DNA of 64,000 bases from Gammaproteobacteria bacterium (GTDB lineage Bacteria > Pseudomonadota > Gammaproteobacteria > UBA4575): assembly GCA_965207475.1 (NCBI GenBank), contig OZ242278.1, positions 264,320 through 328,319 of the forward strand, given 5' to 3'. This document shows, one piece after another, positions 13,118 through 21,723 of the stretch (position 1 is its first letter; each line of letters opens with the position of its first letter). The notes below the pieces were generated by a model, which saw only the letters and a program-made list of their open reading frames with translations, had not been told where the DNA came from and ran no database searches. Position numbers and translations under genes: made by a program.

Positions 13118-13193
13118 TGGCGTCCCCAGGGGGATTCGAACCCCCGTTGCCGCCGTGAAAGGGCGATGTCCTAGGCCTCTAGACGATGGGGAC
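13118..13193 (-). tRNA. tRNA-Glu (anticodon UUC)
   Basis: The reverse complement reads GTCCCCATCGTCTAGAGGCCTAGGACATCGCCCTTTCACGGCGGCAACGGGGGTTCGAATCCCCCTGGGGACGCCA. That is 76 nt with a full cloverleaf, anticodon loop CUUUCAC, and an encoded CCA. Confidence 0.9.
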
Positions 13194-13710
13194 AGACGAA
13201 TGTTCCTGCATTAACCAGCTATACCTGCATCAGAAGCGGCGCAAGGTACGCTAACCCAGCTTTTGCGTCAAGTACTACGGCATCGGGCAGCACTTGATAT
13301 GGCTAGGCACTACTGAAAAGTAGCTCTAACCATCTGATATATTAGTATCAGTACACTACCAGATAATCCAGTTGCCCCCAATGTTGCCCCAGATACTGCG
13401 ATGGCCGGATCCAAATTCTTAAAGCGCTGTTATCTATAGTTATTTTTAATTTTTACGGATGTTGTCAAAAGTAAATCTGTTCCTTAGACAGTGCCAAGCC
13501 GAGACATGGTTAGGGAAAATAGACTTGCAGATCTGTCCATCTACCCAGGAACCCCTCTCCTCAAGGAATCTCTGTTTTTATTCCGATAGTGCCACGACTG
13601 CGGTTGTACCTATAAGAAACACAGGTGCGTCGCCAAGCGCAGATCACGAAGGGACACCTGATCGTGAAATGTATAATACGCTGGCACTTTGATGCATAAA
13701 GGAGTTCCGT

Positions 13711-14670
13711 ATGCCTATCCGTGATTACCAGTCGCTCATGCTTCCAGTCCTCAAGGCACTCGCCGACGGGCTCGAAGCCCCGCTGTCCAAAATACGAGCC
13801 CATGTTGCTGTTTCGGAAAAGCTGACTGAGCAAGAACTCTCCCAACGGGTGCCAAGTGGGCAGCAGACGGTCTTGAACAATCGCGTCAGTTGGGCGCTGC
13901 ATCGCTTGGAAAAGGCGGAACTGGTCGGGCGGTCGCGCCGCGGAGTATATCAACTGACAACTGAGGGGGACCGGTTGCTGAAGGAGGAACCGGAGAAAGT
14001 AAATAACGTTTTTCTTCGTACTCATTATTCAGCGTATGCAGAGTGGTTGCGTTTGTATGAACAGCGGTATAGGCAGCGACAGAAACGTGAGGGCACATCG
14101 CAGACTGCGCCAGCACAGCTTCGAGTGCCTGATTCCGAAGAGACGCCCGAGGAGCAACTGGGACGTGCCGCTCGGGAACTGCGCATTGCGCTGGAGTCTG
14201 AAATACTGAGTCTTGTCCGCAGTGCCCCTCCCGAATTCCTTGAGCACGTAATCGTCGATCTGCTGGTGTCGATGGGCTATGGTGGCGGTGATGCGGCCAA
14301 GAGCCGTGTGACAGGACGTTCGGGAGATGGCGGTATCGACGGCACAATCCGGGAAGACGCACTCGGTCTGGACGAGGTCTATGTTCAGGCCAAGAAATAC
14401 GCCGAAGGCAGCAACGTTGGCGAAGGTGACTTGCGCAACTTTGCAGGTGCCATTGACGCAGCAGGCACATCCAAGGGCGTATTCGTTACCACAGCTGGAT
14501 TCACGCGATCTGCGCGAGATTACATCGCACGCAGTCCAAAGCGAATCATTCTAATTGATGGCGAAGAATTGGCCCGACTTATGGTCCAGCACGATGTAGG
14601 CGTGCGGACACGCGACCGCTACGAGATCAAGCGGGTTGACGAAGACTATTTTGATCAGGAAGAGCTGTAG
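13711..14670 (+). CDS. mrr: Mrr-family type IV restriction endonuclease (Mrr_N winged-helix + Mrr_cat)
   Basis: Has an N-terminal Mrr_N-like domain and a C-terminal catalytic core (...GDGGIDGTIREDALGLDEVYVQAKKY...) with the PD-(D/E)XK-type D...(E/Q)xK arrangement typical of Mrr_cat. GGAG RBS lies upstream. Confidence 0.7.
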   Translation: MPIRDYQSLMLPVLKALADGLEAPLSKIRAHVAVSEKLTEQELSQRVPSGQQTVLNNRVSWALHRLEKAELVGRSRRGVYQLTTEGDRLLKEEPEKVNNVFLRTHYSAYAEWLRLYEQRYRQRQKREGTSQTAPAQLRVPDSEETPEEQLGRAARELRIALESEILSLVRSAPPEFLEHVIVDLLVSMGYGGGDAAKSRVTGRSGDGGIDGTIREDALGLDEVYVQAKKYAEGSNVGEGDLRNFAGAIDAAGTSKGVFVTTAGFTRSARDYIARSPKRIILIDGEELARLMVQHDVGVRTRDRYEIKRVDEDYFDQEEL

Positions 14671-14673
14671 TTC

Positions 14674-20053: not shown

Positions 20054-20302
20054 ATGAACTATCGAATTGTACGGCTGAAGGAGGTCCAGCAAATGACCGG
20101 ACTCTCCCGATCCACGATTTACGCACTCATTGCCCAAGGCAATTTCCCCAAACAGATCCAGCTCACCGAAAGCGGCCGATCCGTGGGCTGGCATGAACAG
20201 GCGGTAATCCGATGGATCGAGACCCGGCAGCAGGTGGAATGCCCGACCGGCCGCTACTCAGTCGTTGGCGGCCCTAGAGAAGAGCGAGATCACCTCGCCT
20301 GA
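20054..20302 (+). CDS. alpA: AlpA-family phage/island transcriptional regulator (excisionase-like HTH)
   Basis: Start ATG 20054 with GAGGAA RBS. LKEVQQMTGLSRSTIYALIAQGNFPKQIQL is the canonical AlpA/MerR-like HTH. The 3' end overlaps the integrase 3' end convergently. Confidence 0.7.
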   Translation: MNYRIVRLKEVQQMTGLSRSTIYALIAQGNFPKQIQLTESGRSVGWHEQAVIRWIETRQQVECPTGRYSVVGGPREERDHLA

Positions 20303-21484
20303 GGCTCGCAGCTGATCCAGGTAATCCGCCCAGGCCTGCATCATCTTCCTTCGCTCCGGCAGATGCGCCGTGCGGTTGTAGGCCCGCCCGTTCGGATCGC
20401 GCAAGCTGTGGGCCAGCTGGTGCTCGATATAGTCCGGGCGAAACTTCAGCACTTCATCCAAAATCGTGCGGGCCATCGCGCGAAAGCCGTGACCGGTCAT
20501 GGTCTCCTTGCCGATCCCCAAACCGCGCATGGCCGCCAGAACGGCGTTCTCGCTCATGGGCCGGTCCCCCTTGGGACTTCGGGCGCTGGGAAACACATAC
20601 CGGCCCTGTCCGGTCAGGGGCTGCAGTTCTTCCAGGATCTCCACGGCCTGCCGCGACAGCGGCACGATGTGCTGCGTTTTGGTCTTGGTCACCTCAAAGC
20701 GCCATTCGGCAGCATCCAGGTCGATATCTTCCCACTGCGCCTGGCGGAGTTCTCCGGGGCGCACAAAGACCAGTGGGGCAAGGCGCAGGGCGCACTGGAC
20801 CACGAGCGTCCCCTGGTACCCGTCGAGGGTCCTCAGGAGTCTTCCAACCTCGTTGGGCTCCGTAACCGAGGCAAAGTGCTTGCCTTTCACCGGGGGCAAT
20901 GCGCCCCTCAGATCTCCCGAGGGGTTGTATGTGGCCCGGCCGGTGGCAATGGCATAGCGAAACACCTGGCTGCAATAACTGAGTATCCGGTACGCCGTTT
21001 CCAGGGCTCCACGCTGTTCAATCCGCCGAAGGGTCTCAAGGAGTTGAGGTGCGGTAATCCGGGTTATCGGCCGGTTGCCGATCCATGGGAAGACATCGCC
21101 TTCGAGCTGGCTGATGACACGAGTTGCATGGCTGGGTGACCAGATGGAGGCGCGTTTGGCGAACCATTCCCGTGCCAGGGCCTCGAAACTGTTCGCGGCC
21201 TCGTCCGCCTTTGCCGCCTTCTCTGCCTTGCGCTGCTCGCTCGGGTCGACCCCGTTGACCAGCAGCTTGCGGGCCTCATCGCGCCGGGCACGGGCATCCT
21301 TGAGCGTGACATCAGGATAGACTCCCAGCGAGAGGCGCTTCTCCTTTCCTTCGAAGCGATACTTCAAGCGCCACCACTTTCCTCCGTGGGGAGCAACCTC
21401 CAGATACAGCCCGCCGCCGTCAAACAGCTTCCTGGATTTTTCGCCGGCCTTGGCGTTTCGGATTGAAGTATTAGACAGGCTCAT
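20258..21484 (-). CDS. int: Tyrosine-type site-specific integrase, P4/CP4-57 family
   Basis: 408 aa. It has an N-terminal Arm-binding DUF4102-like region (GGGLYLEVAPHGGKWWRLKYRFEGKEKRLSLGVYPDVTLKDAR) and a C-terminal catalytic domain with HGFRAMARTIL and HQLAHS...AYNR (R-H-R-Y family residues). It lies adjacent to a tRNA 3' end. Confidence 0.85.
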   Translation of the reverse strand: MSLSNTSIRNAKAGEKSRKLFDGGGLYLEVAPHGGKWWRLKYRFEGKEKRLSLGVYPDVTLKDARARRDEARKLLVNGVDPSEQRKAEKAAKADEAANSFEALAREWFAKRASIWSPSHATRVISQLEGDVFPWIGNRPITRITAPQLLETLRRIEQRGALETAYRILSYCSQVFRYAIATGRATYNPSGDLRGALPPVKGKHFASVTEPNEVGRLLRTLDGYQGTLVVQCALRLAPLVFVRPGELRQAQWEDIDLDAAEWRFEVTKTKTQHIVPLSRQAVEILEELQPLTGQGRYVFPSARSPKGDRPMSENAVLAAMRGLGIGKETMTGHGFRAMARTILDEVLKFRPDYIEHQLAHSLRDPNGRAYNRTAHLPERRKMMQAWADYLDQLRASGEVISLFSRAAND

Positions 21485-21647
21485 GGGGGCAACTCCCTTT
21501 ACAAATGGTACACTTGCCCCCGATTCTGCCCCCAGTTGCCCCCGGATGTCAATAAACTTCAGTGAACTGCTTTGGACACTGTTAAGCTATAAATATCTTA
21601 TTTATCAAATGGATAAAGACGTTATGGGACATTCTAAGATTTTGAAA

Positions 21648-21723
21648 TGGTGGAGCTAGGCGGGATCGAACCGCCGACCTCTACAATGCCATTGTAGCGC
21701 TCTCCCATCTGAGCTATAGCCCC
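21648..21723 (-). tRNA. tRNA-Ala (anticodon GGC)
   Basis: The reverse complement reads GGGGCTATAGCTCAGATGGGAGAGCGCTACAATGGCATTGTAGAGGTCGGCGGTTCGATCCCGCCTAGCTCCACCA. It has the G3:U70 Ala identity pair, anticodon loop AUGGCAU, and CCA. Confidence 0.9.

Follow-up and report, generated by a model that had tools for sequence, protein, structure and literature searches.

An island at tRNA-Ala(GGC) of an uncultured gammaproteobacterium with restriction genes, a relaxase gene remnant and a conserved folded non-coding element

In the stretch of DNA described here (64,000 nt of contig OZ242278.1, hereafter the window), which derives from an uncultured marine gammaproteobacterium, the genes for tRNA-Ala(GGC) and tRNA-Glu(UUC) stand more than 8 kb apart, and the question is what separates them and whether it can move. 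The intervening DNA is an island that includes an integrase gene, alpA, two restriction genes, the first codons of an MpsA-like relaxase gene and, directly before these codons, a strongly folded non-coding element of ~760 nt. In the reading that we consider likely, the island is a tRNA-targeting integrative mobilisable element with restriction genes as cargo, which has lost its relaxase gene and kept a folded region that is a putative origin of transfer (oriT) and source of RNA. The neighbouring FCSD- and DsrE-family genes suggest that the source organism is a sulfur oxidiser.

Insertion at tRNA-Ala(GGC)

ARAGORN located tRNA-Glu(UUC/ttc) at 13118–13193 and tRNA-Ala(GGC), the integration target, at 21648–21723, both on the minus strand, and gltX (21742–23148, minus strand) lies 18 bp upstream of tRNA-Ala. 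Empty sites were sought by a GltX scan of species-representative genomes. The two tRNA genes were found 101–106 bp apart, with no island between them, in three uncultured Gammaproteobacteria, L001, L002 and L006, in which GltX is 95% (L001) and 69% (L002 and L006) identical to that of the window. The view taken in the preliminary description of this DNA, that the two genes are normally adjacent and that comparison with related genomes would tell an insertion from an ancestral arrangement, was thus borne out in favour of an insertion.

The nearest empty-site genome, L001, has flanks 94–95.5% identical to those of the window. When it was aligned with both junctions, positions 13194–13299 proved to be the 106-bp tRNA-Ala/tRNA-Glu spacer, almost unchanged, and foreign DNA was found to begin immediately after the CCA of tRNA-Ala (attL junction, 21647/21648). 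The minus-strand segment 13118–13299, consisting of tRNA-Glu and the original spacer, is therefore host DNA. Because the empty-site genomes map both junctions to the base, the island occupies 13300–21647 (8,348 bp). A real, integrase-borne island had been recognised before, and its extent is corrected here from 13118–21723 to these 8.35 kb. Its two ends, both read on the minus strand, are the attR arm at 13300–13710, which is 92% identical to that of sister island L007, and the attL arm with the int promoter region at 21485–21647. The G+C content is 0.62 in int and 0.57–0.64 at 19204–19960, as compared with 0.47–0.53 in the flanks. The elevated G+C content ascribed earlier to the orphan sequence of the island thus holds for 19204–19960 (and int) and not for 18300–19203, which is low at 0.43–0.44.

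The integrase gene (20258–21484, minus strand) encodes a full-length P4-type tyrosine integrase of 408 aa with Arm-DNA-bind_3, Phage_int_M and Phage_integrase domains (PF13356, 1.3e-28; PF22022, 1e-37; PF00589, 2.1e-16) and with the motifs RPGE, HGFR and RAYNR. It matches PRK09692 at 3.5e-75, yet below the cut-off of that model. As had been noted, the gene adjoins the 3' end of tRNA-Ala; its start codon is 163 bp beyond that end, on the same strand, and related loci have the same layout. The integrase family is large (>8,000 proteins at E<1e-50), and tRNA genes were scanned in 60 related metagenome loci with 57–72% identical integrases. In most of the 60, a tRNA or transfer-messenger RNA (tmRNA) gene ends ~165–520 bp upstream of the integrase gene on the same strand. 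The layout is the same in every scanned locus with a tRNA or tmRNA gene near the integrase gene, and the remainder are mainly short contigs without a tRNA gene. The targets include tmRNA and the tRNAs for Ala, Phe, Met, Arg, Asn, Lys, Leu, Val and Thr. As both architecture and behaviour fit, the label P4-type is justified, and integrase architecture, position at a tRNA 3' end, empty relatives and arm-type repeats (see below) together are those of a tRNA-adjacent P4-type island.

Next to int lies a gene for an AlpA-family helix-turn-helix protein (~20054–20302, plus strand, alternative start 20039; PF05930, 1.5e-18), which is a probable excisionase or regulator. An assignment of AlpA to the open reading frame (ORF) at 19960–20196 was rejected, since the match lies in the ORF at 20015–20302. 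The int and alpA genes converge and share 45 bp at their 3' ends (20258–20302), as they do in the sister islands L007 and L092. This overlap could permit transcriptional interference between integration and excision functions. A second integrase (P0003), 90% identical to that of the island, is encoded on the same contig.

Pairing of AlpA with an integrase is typical of CP4-57/P4-like elements, and relatives of the integrase are found in phage genomes at 42–57% identity, for example in Stenotrophomonas phage S1. A P4-like satellite or prophage remnant, rather than a conjugatively mobilisable element, could on these grounds lie between the tRNA genes. However, no capsid, primase, packaging or lysis genes are present in the island of the window, in L007 or in L092. 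The sole conserved accessory module is relaxase-like, and it occurs in only one weak IMG/VR provirus contig. A satellite or prophage origin is therefore improbable.

The same tRNA pair bears another insertion in L001. In that genome, with its empty tRNA-Ala site, a different insertion of ~3.3 kb (L001, 11684–15011) follows tRNA-Glu. A repeat of 22 nt from the 3' end of tRNA-Glu, with a single mismatch (CGAATCCCCTTGGGGACGCCA), marks its boundaries, and it includes genes for a bPH_3 protein and a portal-protein fragment, without an integrase gene. The presence of this separate insertion makes the tRNA pair a double hotspot. The tmRNA gene of the window (34642–34995, tag ANDDNYALAA), a frequent target of the integrase family, is unoccupied, and a 577-aa ORF follows it (region downstream to 36847).

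The relaxase gene remnant and the folded element

Positions 19960–20037 (plus strand) correspond to codons 1–26 of a gene for an MpsA-like atypical relaxase (PF12834 and PF12835 family; 77% identity), the rest of which is deleted. The remnant is fused to the upstream region of alpA at the same junction in the window and in L092. Since the junction is identical and the cargo of L092 differs, a relaxase-less island lineage has persisted, with a change of cargo. In L007 the corresponding gene encodes a 288-aa protein that is 31% identical to MpsA of SGI1 (E 5e-25), with the C-terminal tyrosine motif included, and both proteins match PF12835.

Further MpsA homologues are encoded on plasmid pSIO1 and on a Pleionea plasmid, where a coupling-protein gene follows. 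On pSIO1 (L099, NC_006860.1, 1934–4819) and on L100 (4995–7680) the MpsA-like gene is directly followed by the gene for a type IV coupling protein. MOB-suite scored both of these small plasmids as 'non-mobilizable'; they are probably mobilisable via this unrecognised relaxase class. The motif AACACTYACC recurs just upstream of the MpsA-like gene in L100 and L101. MpsA-like genes are also found three or four to a single small genome of 1.8–2.0 Mb, for example as four different copies on OZ243969.1. As both these genes and the integrases are multiple per genome, such small genomes hold several islands of this family.

Directly before the remnant lies the conserved, strongly folded non-coding element (19204–19959, plus strand), a probable oriT plus leader or small RNA (sRNA). 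Window positions 19204–20034 align with gene-free gaps in L007, L092 and L090. More distant counterparts are the gaps before genes of the MpsA-like family in L095, L096 and L094. The homologous elements lie at 12337–13094 in L007, 11523–12283 in L092, ~11385–12170 in L090, ~9250–10000 in L095, ~9370–10000 in L096 and ~1050–1870 in L094. A gene-free gap of 815–1109 bp (865 bp in L007) precedes every MpsA-like homologue examined.

The 5' edge of the element is formed by a 16-bp hairpin (19204–19256). It is followed by a promoter-like TGTACA-17-TATACT (19374–19402), in which the TATA core of the second hexamer is invariant among the homologues, and by a covarying hairpin at 19426–19447. Three invariant segments lie further downstream, namely AAGGAGGT at 19744–19751, which is strongly Shine-Dalgarno-like, GTGTCCC at 19859–19865, and CAGAAACACTCACC at 19915–19928, which is 30–45 nt before the downstream start codon. 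The octamer TGTCCCAT is found at 19858–19865, within the invariant GTGTCCCATG of the element, and again at 21581–21588, ~60 nt inside the attL arm in a block of partial conservation; a single 8-mer match of this kind is the chance expectation.

The stems of the element are kept by paired substitutions, as in GCCATGG...CATGGC / GCCGCT...AGCGGC / GCCACTG...CAGTGGC and in GTCTCT..AGAGAC / CTCTTC..GAAGAG / TTCCTC..GAGGAA / GTTTTC..GAAAAC. In the 3' domain (19735–19962, seven sequences) the consensus structure has 40 pairs, of which 18 have changed on both sides, and 95.3% of the cells are paired; slid controls gave 36–50% paired cells and 2–6 two-sided changes. For the 5' and central part (19195–19760, five sequences), the corresponding values are 152 pairs, 24 two-sided changes and 89.4% paired cells, as compared with 37–41% and 3–9 changes in slid controls. 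In either analysis, none of 500 shuffles reached the observed paired fraction or number of two-sided changes. The consensus fold of the plus strand was lower in energy than that of the minus strand in both analyses (−149 vs −116 and −211 vs −181 kcal/mol). In comparisons with Rfam, the window region had no hit at E≤1 and the six homologous loci had none at the gathering score. The element is thus a conserved structured non-coding region absent from Rfam.

When 80 metagenome loci with 57–72% identical integrases were searched for the element by nhmmer, no hit was obtained, and an mpsA-like gene is absent from all of them. Viral contigs were scanned twice for motifs, with either no match or a single, previously known contig as the outcome. 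Guide-like matches of at least 8 nt between the element and att or tRNA sequences were at chance level only.

The position of the region between genes of the same strand and its Shine-Dalgarno-like AAGGAGGT could be taken as signs of a protein that ORF calling misses. This is highly improbable, since the homologues share no conserved ORF, the indels would disrupt a reading frame and AAGGAGGT has no start codon within a usable distance downstream. In addition, the substitutions are paired in stems, and none of the seven loci has a called gene in the region.

Given that position, orientation, size and the adjoining protein family match those in SGI1, the element is regarded as the cis or RNA part of a mobilisation module. 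The following mechanism is proposed. The P4-type integrase, probably aided by the AlpA-type directionality factor, inserted the island right after the CCA of tRNA-Ala(GGC). In this family, the mobilisation module normally consists of the MpsA-like relaxase gene preceded by the folded region of ~760 nt. By analogy with SGI1, this region would hold oriT and be the source of an RNA required for transfer, either a long transcript or an sRNA. The island of the window would need a relaxase supplied in trans, for instance from paralogous islands of the same genome, and a helper conjugative element. Supply in trans is plausible because MpsA-like genes recur within genomes and a second integrase shares the contig of the window integrase, and the island may be mobilised in this way.

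A rather less probable alternative, which nevertheless has to be taken seriously, is that the element acts only as DNA, through oriT hairpins or a folded transferred strand, or only in cis, as a 5' leader for translation of mpsA or alpA. Published oriTs of the SGI1 family also have conserved covarying stem-loops (PMC8409611). The element abuts the start of mpsA, and the invariant AAGGAGGT is predicted to pair with an invariant ACACUC just before the mpsA ribosome-binding site. Single-stranded DNA tolerates G-T wobbles as well. Folding of RNA and of single-stranded DNA is indistinguishable in silico. However, the ~190 predicted pairs over ~760 nt are far above the 125-bp, three-hairpin oriT of SGI1, and the element is still conserved in two islands that lack mpsA. 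The fold is moreover strand-specific and belongs to the mpsA sense strand; classical systems transfer the strand opposite to the sense strand of the relaxase gene. These features count against the alternative. A more specific proposal is put forward only tentatively, and we hold it to be doubtful: the element would encode a new large structured RNA that is an obligatory cofactor of MpsA-family relaxases and a conserved, far better resolved counterpart of sgm-sRNA, and that might position the relaxase on oriT or couple excision to transfer. If this is true, RNA dependence would be general to this relaxase class.

Attachment sites, sister islands and cargo

Several observations weigh against a mobilisable element. 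The window shows neither an intact relaxase gene, as is present in the sister islands L007 and L090, nor a helper conjugative element. When a covariance model (R1) built from the 3' domain was run against the SGI1 fragment L102 and against the regions upstream of mpsA in plasmids L099–L101, only noise resulted, and the equivalence of the element to sgm-sRNA would be one of position, size and orientation only. The structure statistics are drawn from five to seven sequences in a few clades. The promoter-like site matches the consensus, and such sites are no more frequent in the scanned region than chance predicts. At the distal boundary, a repeat search between both ends found no 15–25 bp direct repeat of the tRNA-Ala 3' end, so that the partial duplicate predicted earlier at 13.2–13.7 kb is lacking. 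Within an imperfect similarity of ~35 bp between attL and attR, uninterrupted identity is limited to CCAT, which is shorter than the usual overlap region and makes present-day excision uncertain. Finally, no excised attP junction, which would read ...GTGCCTAGCCA/TTTCAAAATC..., was found in viral contigs; the restored attB would read ...CTCCACCA/TATCAAG....

The sequences of the two ends indicate how integration may have proceeded. In the sense of the tRNA, the distal end reads GTGCCTAGCCA|TATCAAG (in longer form ...CAGTAGTGCCTAGCCA|TATCAAG), the tRNA end reads ...GCCTAGCTCCACCA|TATCAAG, the empty site reads ...CCCGCCTAGCTCCACCA|TATCAAG and attL reads CCA|TTTCAAAATC. The distal end thus includes a degenerate mimic of the tRNA end, GCCTAGCCA (13300–13308, read on the minus strand). 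The resemblance consists of the 7-mer GCCTAGC and CCA with a gap of 4–5 nt, and it is weak, as 6% of random 25-mers of the island align equally well to the 3' 25-mer of the tRNA (empirical p ~0.06). The distal ends of L007 and L092 show nearly the same variant, GCCTAGCCCA. A decayed ancient tRNA duplicate is unlikely because the adjoining host spacer is 97–99% conserved, and we infer that the tRNA-like sequence belongs to the element, on the attP side. The crossover is probably at or beside CCAT, at the very 3' end of the tRNA.

Both ends further include short repeats. Between tRNA-Ala and the int start codon there are three direct GGGGGCA(A) repeats (21515–21543), which overlap a promoter-like TTGACA-18-CAGAAT of int (21552–21523, minus strand), and an inverted copy GTTGCCCCC (21485–21493) that covers the int ribosome-binding site directly before the start codon. 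Two direct GGGGCAAC repeats (13371–13378 and 13383–13390) lie 70–90 bp inward from the distal end. The 64-kb window has five GGGGCAAC sites in all, four of them within 100 bp of the two junctions, and the int-proximal block is nearly invariant in the tRNA-Met island L090 and in L010, at tRNA-Ala of another host. The GGGGCAAC repeats are hence predicted arm-type integrase sites that would mark the attP arms, and the position of copies over the int promoter and ribosome-binding site suggests that the integrase represses its own gene.

The nearly identical degenerate tRNA-end repeat in all three occupied genomes (window, L007 and L092), together with the deletion of the relaxase gene, could also be explained by a fixed immobile remnant, in which a single integration in the ancestor of these genomes is now a vertically inherited defence locus. 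The occupied genomes are indeed closest relatives, their flanks being 95.7–97.8% identical to each other and 94–95.5% identical to empty L001. Against this stands the integrity of Int and AlpA, which are full length, and of the arm sites and int promoter, which are conserved. The flanks of the window share the above 95.7–97.8% identity with those of L007 and L092, as compared with 73–89% for parts of the island (int 86–89%, alpA 82–86%, the MmeI-like gene 80.5%, mrr 82%, the non-coding element 73–83%). Divergence of the island segments is thus three to six times that of the flanks, and L092 has a different cargo; hence replacement or recombination among related islands, and not simple vertical descent, is indicated. 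An immobile remnant is therefore unlikely, though less so than a satellite or prophage, and a mobilisable element that may still be excised is preferred.

The sister islands show what is exchanged. L007 (integrase 92% identical at the protein level) occupies the same site and includes int, alpA, the gene for the 288-aa MpsA-like protein, the gap, a gene for a 347-aa protein, and the MmeI-like and Mrr genes. L092 (integrase 90% identical), also at the same site, includes int, alpA, the gap and genes for a Sel1-repeat protein and two other products, with no restriction genes. L090 (integrase 88% identical) is inserted at tRNA-Met and includes genes of a type I restriction system. No trace of the 347/349-aa genes of the sister loci was found in the window. 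In the island of the window, the cargo resembles that of L007 and the mobilisation region resembles that of L092; as judged from these alignments, this island is a mosaic within a family in which different islands have different cargo at the same tRNA site.

The cargo consists mainly of two restriction genes. The first (13711–14670, plus strand) encodes an Mrr-family type IV, modification-dependent restriction endonuclease of 319 aa with Mrr_N and Mrr_cat domains (PF14338, 6.6e-25; PF04471, 6.9e-33) and a full-length match to PADLOC mREase_IV (7e-73). The second (14674–17478, plus strand) encodes an MmeI-like type IIG restriction-modification enzyme of 934 aa that combines in one protein all five MmeI domains, namely an N-terminal nuclease, a helicase-spacer, a methyltransferase, a target recognition domain and a C-terminal domain (PF20464, PF20465, PF20473, PF20466 and PF20467, each 1e-26 or better). 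It matches PADLOC REase_MTase_IIG (PDLC03598) with 1168 bits over residues 2–920 and includes the nuclease motif D..EQK and the methylase motifs FFDPACGCGNF and NPPF. The MmeI-like enzyme would cut unmodified foreign DNA and methylate self DNA, and Mrr would cut DNA bearing foreign modifications. In their full domain sets and catalytic motifs both are like MmeI and Mrr enzymes of known defence islands, and the same gene pair is present in L007. Because the two pairs are only 80–82% identical at the nucleotide level, restriction specificity may differ between the two islands. ARAGORN, Pfam and PADLOC matches thus agree with the preliminary description, in which the tRNA pair was said to be split by int, alpA, mrr and an MmeI-like gene, and its view of the locus as a compact defence island holds with type IV and type IIG restriction cargo.

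The ~2.5 kb that had been set aside as orphan sequence holds, apart from the mobilisation-module remnant, a conserved gene, and ~1.2 kb of it is left without assignment. The gene (18300–18800, minus strand, G+C 0.43) belongs to the variable cargo and encodes a hypothetical protein of 166 aa with no Pfam domain. With 37 homologues at 43–61% identity, it is a genuine gene by the evidence of sequence conservation. The predicted structure of the protein comprises an N-terminal helix and a beta-sandwich (pLDDT 82), and a fold search with this model gave only generic beta-sandwich matches (TM 0.3–0.4) and no diagnostic fold. Elsewhere, as at L103 5179–6489, the gene follows a gene for a 261-aa membrane protein, of which no trace was found in the window; the 166-aa gene may thus be the orphaned half of a two-gene system. 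The unassigned part comprises variable-slot sequence at 17479–18299, with no supported ORF and no match in the sister islands, and a stretch at 18801–19203 without an assigned feature.

Comparison with known systems

MpsA of SGI1 is an atypical relaxase, and oriT is located upstream of mpsA (PMC6414798, PMC8409611, PMC9299015). This oriT consists of 125 bp of G+C-rich stem-loops, 300–430 bp upstream of mpsA, the structure of which is kept despite sequence change (PMC6414798, PMC8409611, PMC9299015). A primary RNA of 650–700 nt runs across oriT toward mpsA and gives rise to an sRNA indispensable for mobilisation; the 3' part of the primary RNA is required for transfer (PMC6414798, PMC9299015, PMC8409611). 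The family described here resembles SGI1 in the PF12835 protein of its sister islands, 31% identical to MpsA, which shares with it the C-terminal ELGH.R..T..YLG, and in a non-coding region, rich in G+C and in hairpins, that agrees in size (650–760 nt) and orientation with the SGI1 primary RNA (PMC9299015, PMC6414798). Conserved covarying stem-loops are present upstream of the mpsA-like start, and similarity to the SGI1 oriT was not detected; the region is accordingly termed a putative oriT.

The differences from SGI1 are as follows. A P4-type integrase acts at tRNA or tmRNA genes here, as compared with insertion at trmE, dusA or yicC, and the islands are 6–9 kb rather than 23–43 kb in size. 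They have no traG, traN or sgaCD and no rep or oriV, alpA is found in the position of mpsB, and mpsA is deleted in the window. The ORFs of the islands in the window, L007 and L092 include none of mpsB, traG, traN and sgaC; since Pfam lacks a model for mpsB, a very divergent copy could escape.

P4/CP4-57 islands, which have a DUF4102 integrase and AlpA, share with the island of the window the integrase architecture, the AlpA partner, the position at a tRNA 3' end and the arm-type repeats. However, the tRNA duplicate of 15–25 bp is replaced here by junction identity of CCAT, int and alpA are convergent and overlapping, and there are no P4 replication or satellite genes.

Integrative elements with oriT only ('iOriT', minimal hitchers) and MOB_M relaxases have been described (bioRxiv 10.64898/2026.01.13.699239). 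Like those, the island of the window has a putative oriT without a relaxase gene and defence genes close by, and the relaxase family in question is tyrosine-recombinase-like. In contrast, its oriT is a predicted one that matches no known oriT, and its host is an uncultured marine gammaproteobacterium, whereas that survey covered clinical species.

Each of the kinds of island involved, the P4-type tRNA island, the island with defence cargo and the MpsA-type mobilisable element, is thus already known, and defence genes on a tRNA-targeting integrative element are routine; the present combination was not found described. The value of the locus lies in its family of small P4-integrase islands, often several to a small genome, which unite an SGI1-type relaxase with a covarying element and exchange restriction genes and other cargo at fixed tRNA sites. 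With its relaxase-less copy, the window offers a naturally occurring case of an island that may travel by oriT alone. The RNA on which transfer of SGI1 depends is enigmatic in its mode of action, and a structured counterpart of broad phylogenetic range beside the same relaxase family would open this question to comparative analysis and simple mating assays.

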